Shown here: positions 3,358 through 25,492 of the stretch, piece by piece
Layout of the letters: each line of letters begins with the position of its first letter
Numbering within the stretch: the stretch's first letter is position 1
From: a virus
UHGV virus genome: UHGV-0110190
Reading direction: 5' to 3' (one strand)
Length of the DNA stretch: 44,149 nt
The notes under the pieces: model-generated
Told to the model about the DNA's origin: nothing
The model's input: only the letters and a program-made list of their open reading frames with translations
Databases searched by the model: none
Translations under genes and position numbers: made by a program

Positions 3358-4156
3358 TGTGAGCGTCCAAATCTCCCAAGATCGCGTTCGCGGCCTTCTT
3401 CTTCACAATCCAAACGTTCTTCTGGCCATCGAGCCGCTTAGGCTCGCCGTTCTCGAATTTACTAGCCTTGAACTTTTCCAGCGTCTTGCGGAAGTCAGCC
3501 GGAATGTCATTGGCCAACGTTTCCTCGATGCGCTTGTAAACCACCTTGCCGAATGCCACGGTAGCGTATTCATTGACGGTTTTGGTGCTGTCCAACAGCT
3601 CTTTGCGTTGCTCAGCTTTAGCCTTGTCCGTGAGGAAATTGCTGTCGCCGATGGTCGCTTTCATATCGTCATTGTCGCGGTCATTCGTCGGAATCAGGAA
3701 GTTGTTGGTGATGAAATTGCGTATCGCGTTGGTGTTGGCAATGGACAGCGCGTAGTTGTTGCCCACGGAGATACCCATGCCGGAAATGTCAAGCTCGATG
3801 CGCTCCTCACTGTACTTGTCCCTGAACGTCGCGCAACCTGTGATAATGATAATGAAAATCTGCTTGCCGTTGTCGTTCTTGGCGAGCGTCAATTCTGGAC
3901 GGTACGTGCTCCACGTGAACGACATGTCGCACGCATCAGCGCACATGCCTAAAAACGACTTGTACTGCTGAGTGTCCACGTAGTCGTAATCGATGTTCGA
4001 TACGTTACTGTCGAACTTCAACACTTTCGGAGCTTGCTCACGGACGTAGGCCCCGAGCATCTGATAACGCTCCCAGAACGACAGCTCAGCCCGTGGCTCG
4101 CTGGATTCCTCGATCTTCTCATCCGCGACGGGAACCTCTTCTTTTTTGACTACCAT
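3350..4156 (-). CDS. ERF-family single-strand annealing protein (divergent)
   Basis: YDYV motif and GMGISVGNNYALSIANTNAIRNFITNNFLIPT resemble the ERF core; adjacent to the exonuclease. Confidence 0.6.
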   Translation of the reverse strand: MVVKKEEVPVADEKIEESSEPRAELSFWERYQMLGAYVREQAPKVLKFDSNVSNIDYDYVDTQQYKSFLGMCADACDMSFTWSTYRPELTLAKNDNGKQIFIIIITGCATFRDKYSEERIELDISGMGISVGNNYALSIANTNAIRNFITNNFLIPTNDRDNDDMKATIGDSNFLTDKAKAEQRKELLDSTKTVNEYATVAFGKVVYKRIEETLANDIPADFRKTLEKFKASKFENGEPKRLDGQKNVWIVKKKAANAILGDLDAHNE

Positions 4157-6180
4157 CTTGTTTGAAACACCTCCTGTTGATCTTGCCCTGTGAATGCTTT
4201 TAACTTTTCGATCGCTTCTCTATAATACCAGTGTTTGTCTACCTCGTCAATGCCTTTCAGATTGAAATCCTCTAAAGCACAAACTGGCGAACTAGGAAAT
4301 ATGGCCGGGTTTCCTTCACCTTTGCGTTTGAAGAAAGTGAAGCCTTTTCCGCGCGTTGCATAGACGCGGTGAACTTTTCCGTTGATGGACTCGTACTCAT
4401 GGAAGTTCTTTGCTTGGTATTTGGTTTTCGGGATGATTTCATAATCCTTTTGTCCTTCTTTCTGTACCACTCTTTGCGGTGCGTAATTGTATTCTCTCCA
4501 CGGAACACGCCCGGTCTCCGTGTACCCGCTACCGGCTTTCAGAATAACTTGGAAACGCTCCAGATCATTGCATTTCTTAACAGTCTCCTCGACCGATATG
4601 TTGTACAACAAGCTCTTGACGATGGCCTCATCGATGATGGTAGCCGTGTTGGATTTAAAGTCTCCCCCACGCCAGTTCTTAACAGTGCCTCCCTTCGCCT
4701 TGACCTTGCCGGTGTCGAACTCCATGACGTAGTTGTTCACATCACGCTGCCACAGCTGCTTGATAATGTCGGTGTCCACCGTGAACCCGGTCAATTCCTT
4801 CCAATCCTCGATAACCTCATCGAGCACGGGAACATCCTCGTCCGGCACGGACAGCACCCAACCGTCGGTATTGAGCTGCACAATCTCCATATCAGGAACC
4901 CTGTCATGGATGCGGTTCATCAAATCTATGATCAAAAGCTGACCGGTGATACATACGCAAGTTCCCATGAACGGATCGTAGAGCTTATTATACTGATTCT
5001 TCAAACAACCGTAAACCGTGTTGAGCACCAACTTTGCAGCATCTGCCTGTGACTTCCAATAGGCAGCACCTTTGGTATCGCCCTTGGCCTCGCACTCTCT
5101 AATGTGCTTTTTCGATGACATGCGAAGATCGTAAAAGTCGGTGAACAGGTGAACCCACTCGGGAGGTATGCCACGGGAGAGGAAGTTGAAGATGATCATC
5201 ATCGACGGATAGAACGAACCAATGTCCTGAATCAGAACGGTGCGTCCGTTTCCGCTGACGAAATGATCGGGCCTAGCTACGTACCGATGTTCAATCGTAC
5301 CCTTCCTGGGGCCGCTTTTGAACATGTGCGGTACGATACTCCCCGTGCTCGCATGCAACCCTCCAACTCCCATGATCGTGGGCGTGCCGTACAGGTCGAA
5401 CAGAATAGGTTCCAGCTCTTCTTTCCATCCCGAGAACGTGTTGATACCCGACACGAAATCTTGCACAATCTCAGGCAACTTGTCGAAGTCGATAATGTCA
5501 TCCGGCAACCTGTCGATGTAGTACTCTTTACCAAAGGTGTTGATCGGGTTGCAATGAACGGCATGAAGCGCTTCAGAAACCACGCGAGCGTTAGTGTTCT
5601 TCATCATTTCAGCGTCGCTCAGATCGGCCATTTCGCACAACGTTTTTTTGGTGCGGATATAATCGTAACGCAAACGGTACAACCTCTCCGTGGCCTCAAC
5701 GTCGTGGATACAGTAATGAACGGCTCCCTGCAACTCCTCTTCGGTCAACGGACGATCAATGTCGAACGAAACGTTCGTTTCCTCAACGTCCATACCGATG
5801 TTACCTTCGATCTCTTTGAGAGACTTTCGAGGTACAATGTCATGGAACAGATCGATGATAGGAGGTACTTCGACTTCCCAAGATTCGCTTCCAAGATAAT
5901 CCCATGCATCCCTAAAGCTGTCGTAGATGAGAATGTCATTCAGCTCTTTGAGCTGTCGATTGGTGAAGCCCATCAACGTGCCTTTAAGGATATACTGGTC
6001 ATAGTCACGGAAGTTGTAACCGACCAACCATATGTTAGGGTGCTCGGCTATGAAGTCCATCACGGCATCCACGTCGTTGTGGAACCATACGACCTCTCCT
6101 GTCTTGTTGCTCTTGAATACCCAGATCAGGTCGTATGCGTAAACCTCACAGTCTGAGAACCACAATTCAGGCTTGTCCAT
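4150..6180 (-). CDS. Family B-type phage DNA polymerase with N-terminal 3'-5' exonuclease
   Basis: Exonuclease motifs DCE, GYNFRDYD and YCIHDV; polymerase motifs DIGSFYPS, KLVLNTVYG and NTDG. Confidence 0.9.
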   Translation of the reverse strand: MDKPELWFSDCEVYAYDLIWVFKSNKTGEVVWFHNDVDAVMDFIAEHPNIWLVGYNFRDYDQYILKGTLMGFTNRQLKELNDILIYDSFRDAWDYLGSESWEVEVPPIIDLFHDIVPRKSLKEIEGNIGMDVEETNVSFDIDRPLTEEELQGAVHYCIHDVEATERLYRLRYDYIRTKKTLCEMADLSDAEMMKNTNARVVSEALHAVHCNPINTFGKEYYIDRLPDDIIDFDKLPEIVQDFVSGINTFSGWKEELEPILFDLYGTPTIMGVGGLHASTGSIVPHMFKSGPRKGTIEHRYVARPDHFVSGNGRTVLIQDIGSFYPSMMIIFNFLSRGIPPEWVHLFTDFYDLRMSSKKHIRECEAKGDTKGAAYWKSQADAAKLVLNTVYGCLKNQYNKLYDPFMGTCVCITGQLLIIDLMNRIHDRVPDMEIVQLNTDGWVLSVPDEDVPVLDEVIEDWKELTGFTVDTDIIKQLWQRDVNNYVMEFDTGKVKAKGGTVKNWRGGDFKSNTATIIDEAIVKSLLYNISVEETVKKCNDLERFQVILKAGSGYTETGRVPWREYNYAPQRVVQKEGQKDYEIIPKTKYQAKNFHEYESINGKVHRVYATRGKGFTFFKRKGEGNPAIFPSSPVCALEDFNLKGIDEVDKHWYYREAIEKLKAFTGQDQQEVFQTRW

Positions 6181-6187
6181 AATCCGT

Positions 6188-8602
6188 CTAACCTTCGATC
6201 AACGTCTCGGTTTGCTTCGTCACGTATCTCCACACGCGGACAGTCTTTCCGTCTATCCACTTTTGTTCTGCTTTCACTCCACGCTCACCCAGCTTACGGC
6301 TGAGCAGAATCTTGCTCAACGGTTTGGCGATGTTGTTCTCAATGCACCAATCCACATAATCTTGATAAATCTCGTTCGGATTGCTCCAAGTGTTCGGATG
6401 CCGCAAAGGATCGACGATAACCAAACGCTCATCGACGTACTGATCGAAGAATTCCCGCTGCGTCTCACGGTACTTGTTCGATGCCAGCCTGACCGCAGGT
6501 GGCTTCTCACCGTACGTGCAGCCGTTCTCGTAGAAAGCGATCGCACCATCCACAAGCCATTTCAAAATGTACGCGCCATCTTCGGCGATGAGCACATCCT
6601 GAAAGTTCGTTATCATTTCGTCCCGTGTGATTGTGGCATCGAACGGGATAACCGTCAAGCGTCGCCACGTACCCTCATCGTTGTCCTTGACCTTCGGCAG
6701 ATGGTTGGTAGCGAGTAAAGTCGAATGCGTAGGCTCGAACTCGATATAACCATGGTTCAGCACTCGTCCGATCATGGTATCCGATGACACCATGCGCTTC
6801 ACGCTCGCCGTGGACAACACCTGTCCGCTTTCCGTCTCCTGTCCAATCACAAGGCGCTTGCCCTTGATCTGAGCGATGGCGATCTGCTGTTCGTAGTTCA
6901 CCTTCGACATGAGAATATCAGGGTTCACGGAGGTGCAATAATCGCCCAACACCGCTTTCATGATCGAGAACAGCGTGGACTTGCCGTTCGAGCCTGAACC
7001 TGTGGCAATGAGAAGATTTTCCTCGTATACCTTGCCAACGCATGCCGCGCCCATCCGCACCTGCATGTAGTCGATCAACGATTGATCGTTGCAGAACGTT
7101 CGATTCAAAAACTCGTCCCACATGCCGTTGTTCTCGGCGTTAGGGTCGTACACGATGTTCGTCAGCTGAGAGTTGAAGTGGTTCCACATGGGAGGATACG
7201 TCTCTCCCGTGCGCAAATCGACCACGACGTTGGGCGTGTTAAGCTCCCAGCCGTTCGAATCGAACAAGCTAGCAGGTTGCTTCATCATCCCTTCTGCCAG
7301 CTTCAACATGGCGCGGATACCCTTCTCGCTGTTCGTCTTCTTCGCGTGGTTCATGAAGTTAGCCGCAGGTGCCATAATCTCCTTGCCCTCACGGCTATCG
7401 GGCGTACAGCACTCGTCCGAGCACTTGTCCTCCAACATCGACCAGTATTCCTTGGCTATGTACATGACGTTCTCAGCGAACTCCACCGCACACTGTTGAG
7501 CACGGTATTCCTGTCCCAGCTCCCAGTTGGAACCGCAGTAGTAGCACCAACCCCACTCGGAAGTGTAACATAGCTCCTGTGAGAACAATTCGGCGAAGGC
7601 TCTAGCATTTCCCACGTCGGTGTAGTCGTGCAACGGAAGAAGAATCTCACCTTCCGGATTCTCGCTCAAGCGTAACGCAACGTCTGAAATGTTCTTCACC
7701 TTACGGTCATTGTCCGCTGCGGTTGTTGTTGTCATGCTGACAGCTTTGATAATGCTGTTCTCCAAATAATCCGAACGCGAAGCAACCTTATCAAGGTGTC
7801 TGCGATCCTTGGAGTTGACCCACGGGGAATCGAGGAACACTTGCTCGATGGCTTCAATGTCTCGGTTCAACCAGTACGCCAGCTTGCACAGAAGCGCCAT
7901 GTCGTGCGAGCTTTCATCGTCCTCGTGGTCTGTGTCGTTGAACAGACGATGGAGCTTGTCATCATGCGTTAAGCCAATGTCCAGCCATTCAGCGGTTGAC
8001 TTATCCCCATGATCGATGACGATAGCTTCCGGCTTCACAGCGGTTTCGATGGTCGGTAGGTACTTTTCGAACAGCCAGTCGATCTCTTTCTGCATGTTGA
8101 GAACCCGGTCGCCGGATTCATCAACATGATCACCTGTGACCGTCACGAAGTTGTAACCGGTATACACTTCGACACCGGGAACTCGCGTTCGGTCGTTCGG
8201 TTTAGTACCTTGACAGAAGATGTGCAAACCGTTGCCGCTCGGGCTGTACTCCATGTAGGTCACGATAAAGTGGTCCACTATATCTTGCGCCATTTCGGTC
8301 AGCGTGCCGTCATCCTTGAAGCAATCGTCCAAATCGATAGCCATGAAACCATGCAGGAACACGAAGCCAACACCGTCAGCGTCGTGCATTTCCACACCGG
8401 CCAACGCTCGATCGAAGTCGGTGAACATACCTTCGTCGGCCTTAGAACACACCTCACCCGAAAAGGGTGATACGGGGGGCTTTCCGAATTTGCCGTCGCC
8501 TTTATCGATCAGCTTGTAGATGAGCCACAGGGGTACGTCAGTCATTTCCTTTGGGAACGAACGCTTCATAAGCGTATCCAAAGAAATTGTCATCCAGCTC
8601 AC
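6188..8602 (-). CDS. Primase-polymerase (AEP) fused to a D5/P4-type SF3 helicase
   Basis: IDLDDC and YSPSGNGLHIF (AEP motifs); TDVGNA, Walker A GSGSNGKST, TNHLP and GTWRRL (D5 helicase). Start could be 8602 or 8593. Confidence 0.9.
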   Translation of the reverse strand: MSWMTISLDTLMKRSFPKEMTDVPLWLIYKLIDKGDGKFGKPPVSPFSGEVCSKADEGMFTDFDRALAGVEMHDADGVGFVFLHGFMAIDLDDCFKDDGTLTEMAQDIVDHFIVTYMEYSPSGNGLHIFCQGTKPNDRTRVPGVEVYTGYNFVTVTGDHVDESGDRVLNMQKEIDWLFEKYLPTIETAVKPEAIVIDHGDKSTAEWLDIGLTHDDKLHRLFNDTDHEDDESSHDMALLCKLAYWLNRDIEAIEQVFLDSPWVNSKDRRHLDKVASRSDYLENSIIKAVSMTTTTAADNDRKVKNISDVALRLSENPEGEILLPLHDYTDVGNARAFAELFSQELCYTSEWGWCYYCGSNWELGQEYRAQQCAVEFAENVMYIAKEYWSMLEDKCSDECCTPDSREGKEIMAPAANFMNHAKKTNSEKGIRAMLKLAEGMMKQPASLFDSNGWELNTPNVVVDLRTGETYPPMWNHFNSQLTNIVYDPNAENNGMWDEFLNRTFCNDQSLIDYMQVRMGAACVGKVYEENLLIATGSGSNGKSTLFSIMKAVLGDYCTSVNPDILMSKVNYEQQIAIAQIKGKRLVIGQETESGQVLSTASVKRMVSSDTMIGRVLNHGYIEFEPTHSTLLATNHLPKVKDNDEGTWRRLTVIPFDATITRDEMITNFQDVLIAEDGAYILKWLVDGAIAFYENGCTYGEKPPAVRLASNKYRETQREFFDQYVDERLVIVDPLRHPNTWSNPNEIYQDYVDWCIENNIAKPLSKILLSRKLGERGVKAEQKWIDGKTVRVWRYVTKQTETLIEG

Positions 8603-13758: not shown

Positions 13759-15402
13759 TTACAGCTCCTTCAACAGATTGCGATGTTTGATATACTCGAT
13801 GGTCTTTTCCAGCTTGACGTAAGGTATTGTGGCACGAATGAAGTCTCCCCACACCATATCGTACAATTCTACAAGATTCTTATCAGCGCACACGTCGAGC
13901 AAAGCGCTGGTGAAGTCTACCGTAGCCCGCAGCGTATCCGGGTTGTGAGTACCCTTCCACAGCCTGAACTCCACGGTCGCGGCAGGGGATAGGTTAACCG
14001 CCTTGTAACGGTTGTGTCCTGCATTCTCCATCTTGAGGTGTAACAACTCGTTATCGTCAACCTTGTTGATGTCCGCTCGTGGACGATCAGCCCAATGCCG
14101 CGCTTGCGCCTTGCTGATACGCCGTCCGAACTGGCATAGCTCGGGATAGAACTTGTCGAAGATCAGCAGAACCTTGGCCATGGTAAGATCGAAGTTCGAG
14201 ATGGAATCCTTGTTCACATGGATATGCAACCCGCACGTCTTTGTGTTGTGCGACTTCATGTGGTACTTCTTGGCTTGCTCATGGATGAAGTCGAACGGGT
14301 AACCGTCAAGCGCATAACCAAGCGCGATGGGAACCGTCGTTACCTCGACCCCCGTGACCTCGCCAAGATCGTTACGCAACGAACCGTCATGCTTGAAGTA
14401 GAACAGATGATCGATCCCTGCGTCTACCGCGGCGTCATAGCAACCTTCCACGAACTCGTTACGCTCGCCTTTATCGACCTCAATTTCCAAACCGACGTAA
14501 CGCACGCCTTTAACCGGACGGCCCTTGTGACACTCGTCACGTGCATGAGCGAACAAAGGAGTGGGCTTGTAGTAGCACTGTTTCACCAAGTTGTCTCGGC
14601 AAATGATGCGCTCGCAATCGTTGCATCTTTCGGCAGCCTCGTTCCAATTCTTAGCGGGGACGAAGGACAAACACTCGTCACAGTATTCGTACTCGTCGGC
14701 CAAAACATCACGAGGCAAGCACTGGGGACACACGTAAGCTCGAATGTTACCGGTTGCCTCCGAAGTCACAGGGTGCATGTCGCATCGTACGTGATATTCG
14801 CCGCATATCGCGCACACCTCCACCTCGTAGACGGCACATTCATGGCATAGGTGCTCGAACGCGTTGCCGTGTCCATTGAGCACGTCATGACCGTCCAGCT
14901 CATCATGATAGTCCGTCCCAGTCCTTTGCTGGCACAATTGGCACCTGGGCGTATCGGAATAAAGCTCCGCGTAAATCCATTCTTCGAGCTGGTCTGCTTG
15001 CCGGTCGAATAGCAGCCGGCGCATGGTGGCGCTGGCGAGCCATGCACTTCCAGTCATATCGTGAAAATCGACGTCGAGAAACCATCCATTCTCGAATCGT
15101 TTAACCTCGAAGTCATCGCTCAACCTACCCGGCAAACAATCGACGCGGTAAAGCTCTCCGTTCTTAACCAAGTACGCTCGATTGGTCTTGAAACTCGTAC
15201 AATTTCCCTGTTCGACAGTTTTGATCATCACCCGGTTCAGGTTATGCACAGGAGTGTCCACAACGTATTCCCGCACCGCGTCGATGGAATGGCTGGCGAT
15301 CAGATGATCGTCGAACACGATCTGGAACATCCTGTTATCGTCCTCCCCGACCGTGCATAACTTGCACCTGTTCTCCGTGCCTATAATCTCGACAACAGAC
15401 AT
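13759..15402 (-). CDS. Putative amidoligase (COOH-NH2 ligase type 2) with N-terminal Zn-ribbon repeats
   Basis: GLEIEVD, FKHDGSL, GVEVTT, TCGLHIHV, RYKAVNL and TVEFRLWKGT motifs; several CxxC pairs upstream; start MSVVE overlaps the upstream stop (TGATG). Confidence 0.8.
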   Translation of the reverse strand: MSVVEIIGTENRCKLCTVGEDDNRMFQIVFDDHLIASHSIDAVREYVVDTPVHNLNRVMIKTVEQGNCTSFKTNRAYLVKNGELYRVDCLPGRLSDDFEVKRFENGWFLDVDFHDMTGSAWLASATMRRLLFDRQADQLEEWIYAELYSDTPRCQLCQQRTGTDYHDELDGHDVLNGHGNAFEHLCHECAVYEVEVCAICGEYHVRCDMHPVTSEATGNIRAYVCPQCLPRDVLADEYEYCDECLSFVPAKNWNEAAERCNDCERIICRDNLVKQCYYKPTPLFAHARDECHKGRPVKGVRYVGLEIEVDKGERNEFVEGCYDAAVDAGIDHLFYFKHDGSLRNDLGEVTGVEVTTVPIALGYALDGYPFDFIHEQAKKYHMKSHNTKTCGLHIHVNKDSISNFDLTMAKVLLIFDKFYPELCQFGRRISKAQARHWADRPRADINKVDDNELLHLKMENAGHNRYKAVNLSPAATVEFRLWKGTHNPDTLRATVDFTSALLDVCADKNLVELYDMVWGDFIRATIPYVKLEKTIEYIKHRNLLKEL

Positions 15403-16313
15403 CACCGCACCTCCGTTTCCTGTATATACTTGCCGTTCTCGACAAGTTCGCGGATGCCGTCGGGACACACCCAACCCAAATCCGTCACGTTCTGCCAATC
15501 TGCTGCAAGCCCCACAATCTCGTATGTTTGATGGTGGGCGCAAAAGCGGCATGTCATATTAACGCCGTCGATCTTGAAATAACGTTCGCCGTAACGGCAC
15601 TCGTCGCATACCTTCACCGTCTTGCGCTGGCCGTCCGGCATGGCAACCTTGAGCTCTCGAAGGTCGCCGGGATGATGCACATTGCCGCATAACTCGCATC
15701 GAGCGACGGACTTATCGTGCGCACACGCCTCGCAATATACAGGGTACCCGTACGTCGCACTAGTATAATCCGGGTGCGGCTCGCCGTAGCACTTATCGCA
15801 CACCCGAAGAAAAACCTCCTCGTTCGCCTGCACGCAAGACTCCGCGTTGAACTCGTGACAACCGATCAACTCGTCGAACGCCTCATCGGACGCAACCCTC
15901 AACGTGCGTTCGTTGCCGGCTGCCAGGACGAACCGAGCGCCCCAATCCCAATACGCGATCATCCAACGGTAACCGTACTCGTCCCCATCATCGTCCTTGT
16001 GATACCTTTCGGTTTGAAAGCGAAGATGAGAGCGCTCGAGAACAGACTTCACGCCCGTGACATAGTTATCGATGAGAATATCCGCGTTGTTCGCGTCGCA
16101 CGTCGGCGCTTCGAAAAATACGTCCTTATGCGTGCAACCTTCCATCATGACGCACCACAGATGGGCAACGTTGGCAAGGTACTCGACGATCGGCTTGCAA
16201 TTGTTCCCCTTTTCGAACTCCTTGGCCATCTTACGAATCGCACTCATGTTGCGGGTACGCAACCGCTCGATAGAGCCATCCACCGTGTCGTAGTGCCGTC
16301 CAAATGCTCTCAT
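15402..16313 (-). CDS. Hypothetical protein with multiple C-terminal CxxC Zn-ribbons
   Basis: CDKC, CEAC, CELC, CDEC and CRFC motifs; GAGG SD. Confidence 0.7.
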   Translation of the reverse strand: MRAFGRHYDTVDGSIERLRTRNMSAIRKMAKEFEKGNNCKPIVEYLANVAHLWCVMMEGCTHKDVFFEAPTCDANNADILIDNYVTGVKSVLERSHLRFQTERYHKDDDGDEYGYRWMIAYWDWGARFVLAAGNERTLRVASDEAFDELIGCHEFNAESCVQANEEVFLRVCDKCYGEPHPDYTSATYGYPVYCEACAHDKSVARCELCGNVHHPGDLRELKVAMPDGQRKTVKVCDECRYGERYFKIDGVNMTCRFCAHHQTYEIVGLAADWQNVTDLGWVCPDGIRELVENGKYIQETEVR

Positions 16314-19780: not shown

Positions 19781-19845
19781 GAATCCCCTTTAAATCCCTT
19801 TAAATCCCCTTAACTCCTCCCTTGAATCCCCTCAATGTCCCTCAA
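19781..19845 (+). repeat. ~10-bp-period degenerate tandem repeat (TAAATCCCCT-like)
   Basis: GAATCCCCTT TAAATCCCTT TAAATCCCCT TAACTCCTCC, then further decayed copies. Confidence 0.75.
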
Positions 19846-19917
19846 CCCTACCCCCCTTCGCGCATGCTATTGACCCACCCCCTCGAATTCAAGCTAAAAT
19901 CGGCGGGAAAAATTCCC

Positions 19918-19946
19918 TTGAAAACGCACCTCCTGTGGTCTATAAT
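19918..19946 (+). promoter_or_regulatory. Sigma70/sigmaA-type promoter for the PAPS-reductase-family gene
   Basis: TTGAAA-17 bp-TATAAT. Confidence 0.75.
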
Positions 19947-19992
19947 GACGGTGCACGATGAAAATCGCTCATCAACTAGAAAGGTGCATCAT

Positions 19993-20913
19993 ATGCTGAC
20001 CCAACATAATTTGGAAGCTAGGCAAAATCTACCATTAGAACAAAAAATCGTATTATCGCAATTCAGAATCAAAGATTGGTATGATCATTTCAAAGGTGAC
20101 GTTTACGTGTCATTTTCAGGTGGTAAAGATTCTACTGTATTGTTAGACCTTGTGCGTAATACGCCAGGTGTATATGATGTTCCAGCCGTGTTTTGCGACA
20201 CTGGATTGGAATATCCGGAAATCAGAGAATTTGCGAGACTGAACGCAGATGTTGTTTTACGGCCGAAACTGACATTTAAGGAAGTTATAGAAAAATATGG
20301 TTTTCCTGTGATAAGTAAAGAACAAGCACAATACATACGTCAATACACTACTACAAAAAGCGACAAACTTAAAAATTTGAGATTTAACGGAGGCGAGAAA
20401 GGTAACTTTTGTATAAGTAAAAAATGGAGATATTTAATCGACGCTCCGTTCAAAGTGTCAGAACAATGTTGTGATGTTATGAAAAAAAGACCTTTCAAAG
20501 CTTACGAAAAACTTAGTGGACGAAAACCAATGACCGGTGTAATGGCGTGTGAATCAAATCTGAGAAAACAACAATATCAAAAGAATGGTTGTAACTCCTT
20601 TGATGCTAATAATCCTAAATCATCACCCATGGGTTTCTGGACAGAACAAGATGTACTCAATTATATGAAAATAAACGAATTGGAGTATGCTAGTGTTTAC
20701 GGTGAGATAATACCAGACCCAAATGTAGAAAACGCTCTGACAACAAGTGGTTGTAAACGAACCGGGTGTATGTTTTGTATGTTTGGGGTTCATCTTGAGC
20801 ACGAACCTAATAGATTTCAACTAATGAAAGAAACGCACCCTAAACAATACTCATATTGTATGAAAAATCTTGGATTGGCAGAAGTACTAGACTATATTGG
20901 TGTGCCGTACTAA
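19993..20913 (+). CDS. Phosphoadenosine phosphosulfate (PAPS) reductase-family protein (PP-loop, Fe-S cluster motif)
   Basis: VSFSGGKDS, DTGLEYPE, CCDVMKK and RTGCMFC motifs; real start likely ATG 19993 after AAAGGTG; markedly AT-rich. Confidence 0.88.
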   Translation: MLTQHNLEARQNLPLEQKIVLSQFRIKDWYDHFKGDVYVSFSGGKDSTVLLDLVRNTPGVYDVPAVFCDTGLEYPEIREFARLNADVVLRPKLTFKEVIEKYGFPVISKEQAQYIRQYTTTKSDKLKNLRFNGGEKGNFCISKKWRYLIDAPFKVSEQCCDVMKKRPFKAYEKLSGRKPMTGVMACESNLRKQQYQKNGCNSFDANNPKSSPMGFWTEQDVLNYMKINELEYASVYGEIIPDPNVENALTTSGCKRTGCMFCMFGVHLEHEPNRFQLMKETHPKQYSYCMKNLGLAEVLDYIGVPY

Positions 20914-20976
20914 GCGTGGTTGTGTTATACTAACCGTGTCAGACAATTCCAAAGGAGGCGCGAAGGCGGTGGACGA

Positions 20977-21120
20977 ATGAGCGTTAAAATGAAAATATTA
21001 GTAGCTTGCGAAGAAAGTCAAGTTGTAACTGAAAATCTTCGAAAACTTGGCCATGAAGCGTATTCATGCGATCTGTTAGACTGTTCAGGTGGTCATCCCG
21101 AATGGCATATACGTGGACGA
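20977..21120 (+). pseudogene. N-terminal fragment of a phage DNA cytosine methyltransferase
   Basis: MKILVACEESQVV...GHEAYSCDL..CSGGHPEWHI matches the N-terminus of a common phage C5-MTase-like family; no catalytic PPC motif follows. Confidence 0.7.
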
Positions 21121-21199
21121 TATGGCCTATCTTCACGAGGATGGCGACCCCGGAGAGGGAGAAGAGGAGGCCGAGGACGCTTGAAGAGCGGATGGGGCG

Positions 21200-21228
21200 T
21201 TGACAGGTCGGGGAGGGTATGGTATAAT
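21200..21228 (+). promoter_or_regulatory. Perfect consensus promoter with extended -10, upstream of terS
   Basis: TTGACA (21200-21205)-17 bp-TATAAT (21223-21228), with TG at the extended -10 position. Confidence 0.9.
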
Positions 21229-21265
21229 AGGGGACGTTCCGTGGTGATACCAGCCGTGTGATACA

Positions 21266-22226: not shown

Positions 22227-22300
22227 TTTCCGGTAGTTCAACGGTAGAACATCGGGTTTTGGCCCCGACGATGAGTGTTCGATTCGCTCCCGGAAAGCCA
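22227..22300 (+). tRNA. tRNA-Gln (anticodon UUG)
   Basis: Acceptor TTTCCGG/CCGGAAA, D arm GTTC/GAAC, anticodon stem TCGGG/CCCGA with loop TT-TTG-GC, T arm GAGTG-TTCGATT-CGCTC, discriminator G and encoded CCA. Confidence 0.92.
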
Positions 22301-22301
22301 T

Positions 22302-22386
22302 GCCGCTGTATGCTGCTATGGAGACAGCTCGGGCTGTAAACCCGCACTTTATAGATTTTTAGGTTCGATTCCTTTCAGCGGCACCA
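22302..22386 (+). tRNA. Atypical tRNA-Tyr (anticodon GUA)
   Basis: Acceptor GCCGCTG/CAGCGGC with A73-CCA; loop CT-GTA-AA; long variable region; TTCGATT T-loop. T-stem has only 3 bp and the anticodon stem 4 bp. Confidence 0.75.
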
Positions 22387-22463: not shown

Positions 22464-23066
22464 ATGAACATCGACGTAATGGATTCGACCCCGAACCCTA
22501 TCGACCTGATCTCCATGGCGATGGGCACGTGCTATGCGAAGGACAACGCAAGCGAGCTGCGCGTGAAACGCGCGTACGAGGCCAACCACATGAGCGTGTT
22601 CGAGCACGCCAAGTTCACGGTGAGGATCAGCGGGGTGTCGAGGGCGCTCACACATCAGCTGGTGCGCCACCGCATGGCCAGCTATTGCCAGGAATCGCAG
22701 CGCTACGTGAAGTTGGACACCGAGGGTGACGCTTGGTACGTCATCCCCGACACCATACGCCTGACCGGCCAGCTGGAGCAGTATGTGGGTACCATGCGGG
22801 CTTGCGGGGAGGAGTACCGCAAGATGCTCGAAGACGGCGTTCCCGCCGAGGATGCGCGCTACGTCCTGCCGAACTCGTGCAAGACCACCATCGTCATGAC
22901 GATGAACCTCCGGGAGTTCTTCGCGTTTCTGGCGCTCAGGCAGGATTCCCATGCGCAATGGGAGATTCGAGCGCTGGCCGATGCAATCGAGGAGACGCTG
23001 CGCGGCTTCGACATGCAATGGGCGTGGCTGCTCGATCTGAGGAAAACAGCCGGTGGTAGGCGTTGA
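22464..23066 (+). CDS. thyX: Flavin-dependent thymidylate synthase
   Basis: HMSVFEH, RHRMASYCQESQRY (ThyX motif), EDARYVLP and HAQWEIR; start after AAAGGAG. Confidence 0.95.
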   Translation: MNIDVMDSTPNPIDLISMAMGTCYAKDNASELRVKRAYEANHMSVFEHAKFTVRISGVSRALTHQLVRHRMASYCQESQRYVKLDTEGDAWYVIPDTIRLTGQLEQYVGTMRACGEEYRKMLEDGVPAEDARYVLPNSCKTTIVMTMNLREFFAFLALRQDSHAQWEIRALADAIEETLRGFDMQWAWLLDLRKTAGGRR

Positions 23067-23091
23067 CGTTGGTTACTGGATATGGTATAAT
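23063..23091 (+). promoter_or_regulatory. Consensus promoter for the nrdD operon
   Basis: TTGACG-17 bp-TATAAT; shares GGCGTTGAC and TATGGTATAAT with the terS promoter. Confidence 0.85.
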
Positions 23092-23179: not shown

Positions 23180-25024
23180 ATGTCTGGAAGGAGGAACATG
23201 CACGATATTGACGATGTATACGAGATTTTGGACACTGCCACGTTCGCACAGTCCGAGGAGTCGGACATGAAGAGATCGAACGCGAACGTCAACACAGACA
23301 GCCCTATGGGGGCTATGCTGACGTACGGCTCTGAGGTCGCCCGCCTGTGGGTCGATGACACAGTGCTCCCGCAGTACGTGAAAGAGGCTGTGGACGATAA
23401 CATCATATACATACATGATAAAGACTTTTACGGGTTGACCATGACGTGCTGCCAGATCGACCTGAGCCAGCTGTTCGAGCACGGCTTCAACACGGGACAC
23501 GGGCACATCAGGCCTCCCAAGTCGATAGGCACGGCGGCTGCTTTGGCTTGCATCGCCATACAGTCCAACCAGAACGACATGTTCGGCGGTCAGTCTGTTC
23601 CGGCGTTCGATTATTATCTGGCACCGTACGTGAAGATGACCTACGAGAAGAACGTGGCTGAGCTTAACCGCTTGGTGTCAGCGTTCGGAGGCAAGCCCGA
23701 CCAGTATTCGCGGGTACCCGAGTTCGCGTGGAACAAGACCGTGGAGCAGACAGACCAGGCCATGGAGGCGCTGGTCCACAACCTGAACACCATGCATTCA
23801 CGCGCTGGGGCACAGGTGCCGTTCTCCACCTTGAACTACGGCACGGACACGTCGAGGTGGGGACGGCAGGTCATACACAGTTTGCTCAAAGCCACGCATC
23901 AGGGTATGGGAAACGGGGAAACGCCTATCTTCCCGGTTCAAATCTTCAAGATCAAGGAAGGTGTGAACTACAACCCCGAGGACCCGAACTACGACCTGTT
24001 CCAACTGGCTATGCGAGTGAGCGCCGAGCGCTTGTTCCCGAACTTCTCGTTCATGGACTCGCCGTACAACGCGCAGTATCTCAAACGAGACGAGGACGGG
24101 CACATCGACCCGGACACCGAGGTGGCCTACATGGGGTGCCGTACGCGCGTCATGGCCAACGTCAACGGGCCTGAGACCACGAGCGGAAGGGGCAACCTCA
24201 GCTTCACCTCCGTGAACTTGGTGCGTTGCGCGCTCGAAAGCAAGGGATCGTTTGACATTTTCTTGAAGAACGTGTATGATGCTTGCACGATTGCACGCGA
24301 TCAGCTGTTGCACCGATTCGAGATTCAGAAGCACAGGCACGTTTACAACTATCCGTTCTTGATGGGGAACGGGGTGTACCTTGACTCGGGTGACCTTGAA
24401 TGGGATGACGAAATCGAAAGCGCTCTCGTGCATGGAACGCTCTCAATCGGATTCATCGGACTCGCCGAGGCGATGTTCTGCATCTTCGGACAGCATCACG
24501 GAGAGTCTGATGCAGTGTGGAAGCACGCTTTCGACACAGTTAGATTTATGCGCGACTTCTGCGATCGAGAATCTGAGGAACATAGACTTAATTTCTCTTT
24601 GCTTGCAACGCCAGCTGAGGGGTTAAGTGGTAAATTCGTTGGGAAGGATAAGGAAAAGTTCGGTGAGATTCCAGGTGTCACGGACAAAGACTACTACACC
24701 AATTCCTTCCATGTCCCCGTTTATTACAACATCGGAGTTGCCGAGAAGATTGAGAAGGAAGCACCGTTTCATTCCCTATGCAACGCCGGACATATTACGT
24801 ATGTTGAGCTGGATGGAGACACAACGAGCAACCTCTCAGCGTTCGAGACGATTGTTCGGCACATGCATGATTGCGGCATTGGGTATGGTGCTATCAATCA
24901 TCCTGTGGATCGCGATCCGATTTGCGGTTATCGGGGTGTGATTTACGATACGTGCCCGTGTTGCGGGCGTAAAGAGTTCGAAGCAGTGCCAATGGAAAAA
25001 AGGAGCGATATATGCTTGAAATGA
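23180..25024 (+). CDS. nrdD: Anaerobic (class III) ribonucleoside-triphosphate reductase catalytic chain, lacking the ATP cone and the C-terminal glycyl-radical motif
   Basis: IYIHD, TCCQI, QNDMFGGQS, YMGCRT, GRGNLSF, ATPAEGL, YYTNSFH and DPICG..CPCCG motifs; ends without RxxGY. Confidence 0.93.
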   Translation: MSGRRNMHDIDDVYEILDTATFAQSEESDMKRSNANVNTDSPMGAMLTYGSEVARLWVDDTVLPQYVKEAVDDNIIYIHDKDFYGLTMTCCQIDLSQLFEHGFNTGHGHIRPPKSIGTAAALACIAIQSNQNDMFGGQSVPAFDYYLAPYVKMTYEKNVAELNRLVSAFGGKPDQYSRVPEFAWNKTVEQTDQAMEALVHNLNTMHSRAGAQVPFSTLNYGTDTSRWGRQVIHSLLKATHQGMGNGETPIFPVQIFKIKEGVNYNPEDPNYDLFQLAMRVSAERLFPNFSFMDSPYNAQYLKRDEDGHIDPDTEVAYMGCRTRVMANVNGPETTSGRGNLSFTSVNLVRCALESKGSFDIFLKNVYDACTIARDQLLHRFEIQKHRHVYNYPFLMGNGVYLDSGDLEWDDEIESALVHGTLSIGFIGLAEAMFCIFGQHHGESDAVWKHAFDTVRFMRDFCDRESEEHRLNFSLLATPAEGLSGKFVGKDKEKFGEIPGVTDKDYYTNSFHVPVYYNIGVAEKIEKEAPFHSLCNAGHITYVELDGDTTSNLSAFETIVRHMHDCGIGYGAINHPVDRDPICGYRGVIYDTCPCCGRKEFEAVPMEKRSDICLK

Positions 25025-25320
25025 TCAACGGCAATATGAGCCTGACCGGTTTTCATCATGATGTGGATTCCGACAAGAAGACTACCACCTTCGACGGTCT
25101 GATCCATGCTGCCGATAACAACTCTATCGAGGTTCACGTAGAGCTGACGGCACGAAACACGCCCGGCGATGTTTCTCCTGTGCTCAAGTACGATAAGGCA
25201 GAGCCTATCGTGTTCGCCATGGTTCCTATGAGCGTTCAGCAGAAGCTCATGGAGGAGCAGCCGAAGCCGGAAGCCAAGGTAGAGCCTGAGGCTGTGAGTG
25301 CGGAGGTCATCGATGAGTAA
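25012..25320 (+). CDS. Unknown 102-aa acidic protein between the two nrdD parts
   Basis: AAGGAG SD inside the nrdD 3' end; overlaps both flanking nrdD ORFs. Confidence 0.7.
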   Translation: MLEMINGNMSLTGFHHDVDSDKKTTTFDGLIHAADNNSIEVHVELTARNTPGDVSPVLKYDKAEPIVFAMVPMSVQQKLMEEQPKPEAKVEPEAVSAEVIDE

Positions 25321-25456
25321 GAGCGTTGAAGAGAAGTACGGCAAGGGCGTTGGTTTTGAACGTATCCGCCGAATTACAGGCTACCTTGTGGGCTCTACAG
25401 ACCGATGGAACGATGCAAAGCGGGCGGAGCTGAAAGACCGCGTTAAGCATACTTAA
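25313..25456 (+). CDS. nrdD: Stand-alone NrdD glycyl-radical peptide (47 aa), not in the ORF track
   Basis: GGAGG SD at 25302-25306; MSKSVEEKYGKGVGFERIRRITGYLVGSTDRWNDAKRAELKDRVKHT* matches the NrdD C-terminal RITGYL motif. Confidence 0.92.
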   Translation: MSKSVEEKYGKGVGFERIRRITGYLVGSTDRWNDAKRAELKDRVKHT

Positions 25457-25459
25457 AAT

Positions 25460-25492
25460 AAAAAAAGACCCCGTTATGGGGTCTTTTTTTTT
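25460..25492. terminator. Bidirectional intrinsic terminator
   Basis: AAAAAAAGACCCC-GTTAT-GGGGTCTTTTTTTTT between convergent genes. Confidence 0.9.

Follow-up and report, generated by a model that had tools for sequence, protein, structure and literature searches.

A gut phage class III ribonucleotide reductase probably encoded in two pieces, with the glycyl-radical loop on a separate 47-residue peptide

The DNA analyzed here (hereafter, the window) is the complete 44,149-nucleotide stretch of UHGV virus genome UHGV-0110190. Family searches identified it as a tailed-phage genome that encodes terminase, portal, capsid, holin, endolysin, primase/helicase, polymerase, and thyX. When the window ends are joined, the last ORF runs into a stop codon, which fits a complete, circularly permuted genome. 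The nearest cultured relative is the Eggerthella phage EL753P1 (44,015 bp), which has an identical gene order and shares 85.5% identity in capsid and 71.5% identity in NrdD; the host of the window phage is therefore likely to be an Eggerthella-like gut anaerobe. A search for the host reductase found no nrd terms in the supplements of PMC10234575 (11 of 24 files searched) or PMC9734109 (nine files). Elsewhere in the window, the minus strand carries a weak family-B polymerase match, an NrS-1-like primase-helicase, and an amidoligase-family gene (4150–6180, 6188–8602, and 13759–15552), and a PAPS-reductase-family gene and a partial DNA methyltransferase match are found in a low-GC stretch at 19822–20913 and 20920–21261.

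The locus of interest lies on the plus strand next to thyX, a neighboring gene of nucleotide metabolism (22464–23066; PF02511, TIGR02170). Two tRNAs, tRNA-Gln and tRNA-Tyr, are encoded 5′ of thyX (22227–22386), and the corresponding region of a relative (L004) has seven tRNA matches. A predicted sigma70-like promoter (TTGACG-17-TATAAT with a TG; 23063–23091, plus strand; 11 of 12 consensus matches) precedes nrdD (23198–25024), which codes for a class III ribonucleotide reductase (RNR) large catalytic subunit of 608 residues. An alternative start at 23180 would yield 614 residues; the ATG at 23198 is where the proteins of L004 and EL753P1 begin. The subunit matches positions 2–534 of the 562 in PF13597 and aligns to residues 107–707 of P. 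copri NrdD. Its structural model (pLDDT 89) contains the NrdD-type ten-stranded alpha/beta barrel, as indicated by its Foldseek match to 8P2S_B (TM 0.90, E 5.5e-59).

Motifs associated with catalysis are retained in the large subunit. Cys84-Cys85 (TCC; 23447–23452) falls in the beta-A active-site cysteine region and aligns to TCVQ of P. copri, while alignment also places the MGCR finger loop, with the putative thiyl-radical cysteine, at 24131–24142, a position that is an intein insertion site in relatives. Among 57 aligned split large subunits (row L132 was left out as it contains unknown residues), C84, the NxN flap, and M312-G-C-R315 were invariant (57/57), as were D573, C576, C586, and C589 of the zinc-site region D-P-I-C...C-P-C-C (24914–24964, by alignment). 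The protein stops after this site, ending in ...CGRKEFEAVPMEKRSDICLK, and has no glycyl loop. An earlier, sequence-only reading of this DNA had described an NrdD that keeps TCC, MGCR, and a Zn-site region and is devoid of the glycyl motif; the Pfam coverage agrees with this, and the zinc region is indeed on the large chain, but its first putative ligand is Asp. Partial text of Burnim et al. (PMC9669993) links MGCR to formate use and the ATP cone to overall activity control, from which we infer that formate is the reductant (MGCR type) and that dATP shut-off is absent (no cone). In the close relative L001 (L001:2651-5987) and in EL753P1, a LAGLIDADG intein is located at the active site between MGC and R.

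The missing glycyl loop is encoded by a separate gene (25313–25456, plus strand) that is preceded by GGAGG, lies in the same frame as nrdD, and specifies a basic peptide of 47 residues (pI 10). The peptide matches NrdD models only (PF13597, positions 533–562) and not the C-terminus of pyruvate formate-lyase (PFL), and it aligns to P. copri NrdD 707–738, spanning Gly711 in the numbering used in the available portion of PMC11226230. Its RITGY motif, with Gly23 encoded at 25379–25381, is the sole occurrence of R[VI][TSC]GY in the six frames of the window, and G23 was invariant in 56/56 aligned peptide rows. The gene is followed by a hairpin (25460–25490) with A and T runs on its flanks, likely a two-way intrinsic terminator; a similar hairpin occurs in L003, L004, L187 (EL753P1), and L242. 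These results uphold the earlier description of the glycyl piece as its own gene with a Shine-Dalgarno (SD) sequence and a terminator.

Between these two genes, and overlapping both as had been noted (by 13 nt with nrdD and 8 nt with the peptide gene), is an ORF for an acidic protein of 102 residues (25012–25320, plus strand; pI 4.6). No Pfam, NCBIfam, or PHROG family matched this ORF, nor did any nuclease family, and its own family comprises five clusters at 50% identity among 1.84 billion representative proteins, seen only in the phage family of the window. Its frame is kept at 34–79% identity with invariant motifs, which suggests that it is probably a real gene. The predicted structure is a low-confidence beta-meander (pLDDT 58) that had no Foldseek viral match at E ≤ 0.001, a best Z of 5.0 in a wide PDB search, and Atlas scores of 0.84–0.87 to unnamed clusters. 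An internal promoter-like site in nrdD (TTGACA-17-TATGAT; 24252–24280, plus strand), which was noticed post hoc and arose in 4 of 500 synonymous shuffles, could allow the middle and peptide genes to be transcribed on their own; it is present in L001, L003, L239, and L240 and not in L004 or L194.

Absence of both an ATP cone and a radical-SAM activase (nrdG) from the genome had also been claimed, and neither was found. Pfam detected no ATP cone in the window and no radical-SAM family among the 30 window ORFs scanned (there are 140 frames of at least 80 aa, many of them shadows). The single ORF with a CxxxCxxC pattern, of 190 aa, had no family match. TIGR02491 (nrdG) likewise retrieved nothing from the nearest complete record (G001) or from G002, G003, G207, and EL753P1, and nrdG was present in only 3 of 26 virus records searched. 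Phages with nrdD and no nrdG have been reported (PMC3653736, in part available), and a fused phage NrdD (L051) is also devoid of an ATP cone; absence of the two is ordinary for phages. We infer that the window enzyme would be activated by host NrdG. Activases are described as specific for the Gly-loop sequence in the accessible part of PMC13450708, a point that counts against this reading.

The sequence-only reading had allowed that the split might not be unique, and this is confirmed by its distribution. Among the best 80 bacterial loci, a sample biased by the query, 65 were split, 7 were fused, and 8 were peptide-only; these loci derive from Bacillota, Fibrobacterota, Bacteroidota, Spirochaetota, and Desulfovibrionaceae bins, and most split loci are arranged nrdD–peptide–nrdG. 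Homologs of the peptide form 2651 clusters of 25–83 aa, some share of which may be contig-end fragments, and R[IV]TGY[LI] is kept in 120/120 homologs among the matches listed. A G-E-G-V-like segment occurs on both halves of the enzyme (35/57 large chains and 50/56 peptides). When 151 Clostridia genomes were drawn at random, NRDD matches were obtained in 141, and full-length proteins accounted for 148 of the 150 matches listed. A peptide search of 150 of these genomes (one partly scored) placed 7 of 49 matches in short frames. Two of the seven are split operons, four are peptides additional to a same-subfamily fused NrdD encoded in that genome, and one is a contig-edge fused gene. Judging from these gene sets, the split is a recurrent minority state. 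A quick tree of 110 rows grouped the five phage-family rows at 99 support and required 2–6 fused/split changes; the tree has no root, so no order of these events is claimed, and it omits 10 near-duplicate loci (including EL753P1) and includes unreliable labels for L101 and L106 due to interruptions. On the large phage contig L106 (L106:3966-8393), nrdD is in at least five pieces with one break within the radical motif, suggesting several introns.

Peptide genes also occur in phages apart from any large subunit. Among 80 viral loci, 60 had no large subunit in the flanks examined, 15 were fused, and 5 were split, and R[IV]TGYL was kept in 60/60 of the peptide-only loci. Of 22 phage records at least 90% complete, drawn from 50 chosen viral records that were mostly peptide-only, 19 encoded no large subunit, with Pfam positions 530–562 alone being present in those 19. 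Neighboring genes were varied and included lysis, tail, and DNA-metabolism genes; two peptide-only loci (L034 and L046) are flanked by PAPS-reductase genes, a family represented in the window as well. A complete 49-kb phage record (G037; L053:262-970) has nrdG and the peptide with no large subunit, and the same pair is found without a large subunit in a cellular genome (L193:4150-4867), where it adjoins rubrerythrin, a thioredoxin-reductase-like gene, and NifU.

A longer form of the free peptide, of ~90 aa with an N-terminal extension, turned up in 23 genomes (25 loci) among 151 from a single clostridial order, with the glycine motif in 25/25. A rubredoxin or flavodiiron gene lies within about 1.5 kb of 13 of these 25 loci (12 on the same strand), compared to 4 of 80 larger nrdD-operon loci. 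Since the genomes are related and not independent, this context reflects one or few events, and it belongs to the ~90-aa type of one order rather than to the 47-aa type of the window; it offers a hint that the radical peptide is linked to oxygen. The free ~90-aa peptide ends a rubredoxin/flavodiiron gene run in L189 (L189:2379-4140), L243, and L246-L270, and its locus is next to a divergent Crp/Fnr-type regulator in L189 and L243. In L188 (L188:1162-4714), the gene immediately after a fused nrdD encodes an additional radical peptide of 87 aa, and nrdG comes next. Twenty-one of the Clostridia genomes with the ~90-aa peptide were searched further: 15 encode a fused NrdD, five a large NrdD without a tail, and one no large subunit. 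Each of the five tail-less proteins (L271-L275, from draft assemblies) terminates at a stop codon of its own beyond the zinc site; in three of five, more than 2 kb of downstream sequence contained no peptide gene or nrdG, while the other two are near contig edges. Several tail-less clostridial NrdD keep an eroded, FERI-like remnant of the radical tail. The remote matching peptide genes in these five genomes are the strongest sign of action in trans.

Collectively, these observations suggest, with a probability that we put at roughly three in four, that the class III RNR of the window phage comprises the products of two genes and that the 47-aa peptide docks its RITGY loop in trans. The pieces tile one enzyme (Pfam 2–534 and 533–562; P. 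copri 107–707 and 707–738), the cut position is shared by many microbes and phages, and peptide genes can be upstream, remote, or unaccompanied by a large subunit. The proposal in the sequence-only reading of a separate radical carrier that acts in trans thereby gains comparative support. Host NrdG would install the glycyl radical on the peptide, which, being charged in this way, would dock its loop into the large subunit; the glycyl radical domain of P. copri NrdD is described as mobile in the part of PMC11226230 available. As the radical Gly would reside on a separate peptide, oxygen would destroy only a small, replaceable part, and a cleaved peptide could be exchanged.

The middle protein had been put forward as a third subunit, with a survey of whether its gene accompanies split nrdD as the check. 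It sits between nrdD and the peptide gene in three phage lineages (the species of the window, L242, and EL753P1/L194; 34–40% identity), which are all of the cases with visible middle-gene context. Its profile matched none of the 65 split bacterial loci nor any cellular locus among L001-L237, and within the phage family it is absent from L004 (74% NrdD identity), where the large and peptide genes are directly coupled, and is cut in frame to 35 aa in L003 (98% identity). A gene confined to one phage family, and absent or mostly deleted in members of it, is not a required third subunit. It may still be a phage-specific accessory of the reductase, such as an acidic chaperone of the basic peptide or an adaptor that recruits a foreign host NrdG, which would be compatible with the two-piece enzyme; its constant position, its overlap with both neighbors in the window, its charge (pI 4.1–4.6 versus 10 for the peptide), and the lack of nrdG in the family members searched fit such a role. 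We nevertheless regard this role as unlikely given the losses above, given that neighboring unknown genes are equally syntenic in this family, and given that unrelated genes occupy the same gap elsewhere (NUMOD4-HNH in L001, DUF1653 in L027, and a 267-aa ORF in L102). The middle protein is most likely the product of an unrelated, at most accessory, phage gene in a gap that appears tolerant of insertions. A free-standing NUMOD4-HNH gene follows nrdD in the close relatives L001, L239, and L240, and the 3′ end of nrdD has been exchanged in L001. A homing endonuclease as the cause of the split was considered and rejected, as the middle ORF has no family match, the split occurs without an insert, and HNH genes are found in only some relatives.

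The remaining alternatives concern the peptide itself. In EL753P1 (L187:7019-7178), five extra bases and a stop lie inside the RRITGY codons, and the same break is present in an independent metagenomic record (L194), such that the peptide gene is broken in both records of this lineage, one of them a cultured phage, while nrdD is intact; the phage's own peptide can therefore be lost, which counts against the two-piece reading. This, together with the missing nrdG, could mean that the phage can do without the peptide, or without the module altogether, or that either is decaying, and that the large subunit uses a host radical peptide or does nothing. We consider this improbable, somewhat more so than an accessory role for the middle protein, because the window-species peptide varies at silent sites only (1, 2, and 6 synonymous and 0 non-synonymous codon differences versus L001, G001, and L003) and is unchanged on 135 contigs, and because, within the EL753P1 lineage, nrdD has 11 synonymous differences to 1 non-synonymous in its 3′ half. 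Moreover, L194 and EL753P1 share 94% identity over 7 kb and about 99% in the immediate surroundings of the break, which may therefore be recent. An intact version of the exact EL753P1-lineage allele was not found in the viral collection (one match), and an intact relative exists (P0019). The broken gene in EL753P1 and L194 still has a promoter-like site of its own, a hairpin upstream, and a strong SD sequence, and may be either a pseudogene or subject to recoding. That a single NrdD chain is made after all, through splicing, ribosome bypass, frameshift, or readthrough across the gap, would accord with the shared frame of peptide and nrdD in the window and with the introns that phage nrdD genes often carry (PMC3653736, in part available). 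It is nonetheless very improbable: no Rfam intron was detected in 10 sources (the window among them), the three frame relations occur about equally often (26/28/21) in 75 split loci (65 cellular and 10 phage), where gaps range between −1 and 811 nt and each of the three stop codons is used, the peptide gene is upstream of the large gene in L095 and remote in other genomes, and an SD-like sequence precedes 71 of the 75 chosen peptide starts, although starts were picked by that same score. Two specific versions were rejected: an intron-interrupted nrdD, on the same Rfam and frame results, and a −1 frameshift in the A-rich sequence that closes nrdD, where the run is the SD sequence of the middle gene and a second shift would be required. 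RNA data were uninformative on both expression and splicing: 15 runs matched at most 0.15 of words, and four runs, in the form of contigs, gave no cover of 25034–25324 and no joint across the gap.

The two-piece enzyme may belong to a wider family of NrdD spare parts, in which cells would co-express the interchangeable peptide with oxygen-detoxifying rubredoxin/flavodiiron genes and re-arm NrdD cleaved by oxygen, some lineages would later have lost the tail from the large subunit, and phages, many of them devoid of a reductase, would use the peptide to keep dNTP synthesis running in gut hosts exposed to oxygen; we hold this broader proposal tentatively, at slightly less than even odds. Whether spare parts exist for glycyl-radical enzymes beyond PFL is explicitly an open question in the portions of PMC8683613 and PMC13450708 available, and the latter, a 2026 review, states that formate lyases are the only enzymes for which they have been identified. 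We found no account of an NrdD whose radical peptide is detached in the mostly open-access literature searched, available in part (PMC9669993, PMC13450708, PMC12288474, PMC4390871, PMC11226230, PMC3653736, PMC8683613, and PMC9531940), which does not prove its absence from print. The split loci provide named, small, and easily expressed spare-part candidates for an essential enzyme, and a cultured strain, Allofournierella massiliensis DSM 100451 (L176), has a split operon together with its own nrdG. A detachable radical loop, if true, would be a simple system for studying substrate recognition by NrdG, and detached peptides would explain the thousands of short NRDD-matching proteins in databases (the 2651 clusters above).

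Compared to characterized class III NrdD/NrdG systems (P. copri 8P23/8P2S, phage T4 1H78, and T. maritima 4COI), the fold, NxN flap, MGCR, zinc region, and RITGY of the window enzyme are alike, whereas a second gene encodes its glycyl loop and C-terminal helix, its first zinc position is Asp, and both the ATP cone and a phage nrdG are missing. It is classed as an NrdD variant because the radical Gly is not on the same polypeptide. RNR genes in pieces are also known from the Aeh1 nrdA split by mobE, the split class II NrdJa/b, and the fragmented phiAS4 nrdD (PMC3653736, in part available), and the window enzyme resembles these in being encoded by separate ORFs with another gene in the gap; unlike in these systems, the NrdD cut falls at a constant position C-terminal to the zinc site and does not depend on an insert. 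A functional analogy can be drawn to the PFL cofactors GrcA/YfiD of E. coli and Y06I of phage T4, in which the radical domain is likewise its own small gene, is found in cells and in phages without the large enzyme, and shares a duplicated segment with its partner. According to the available part of PMC8683613, YfiD and cleaved PFL both need a duplicated strand, which the G-E-G-V-like segment on both NrdD halves recalls, and the ~90-aa NrdD-type peptide has an N-terminal extension as GrcA/YfiD does. In contrast to GrcA/YfiD, the window peptide is homologous to the NrdD tail and not the PFL tail (PF13597 only), and coexistence with a full-length partner, which 15 of 21 Clostridia genomes show for the ~90-aa peptide, does not apply to the window. 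There, the nrdD gene itself encodes a truncated partner, which would make the peptide obligatory and not a spare. By analogy, the window enzyme would work like GrcA plus PFL, yet its peptide is not a GrcA.
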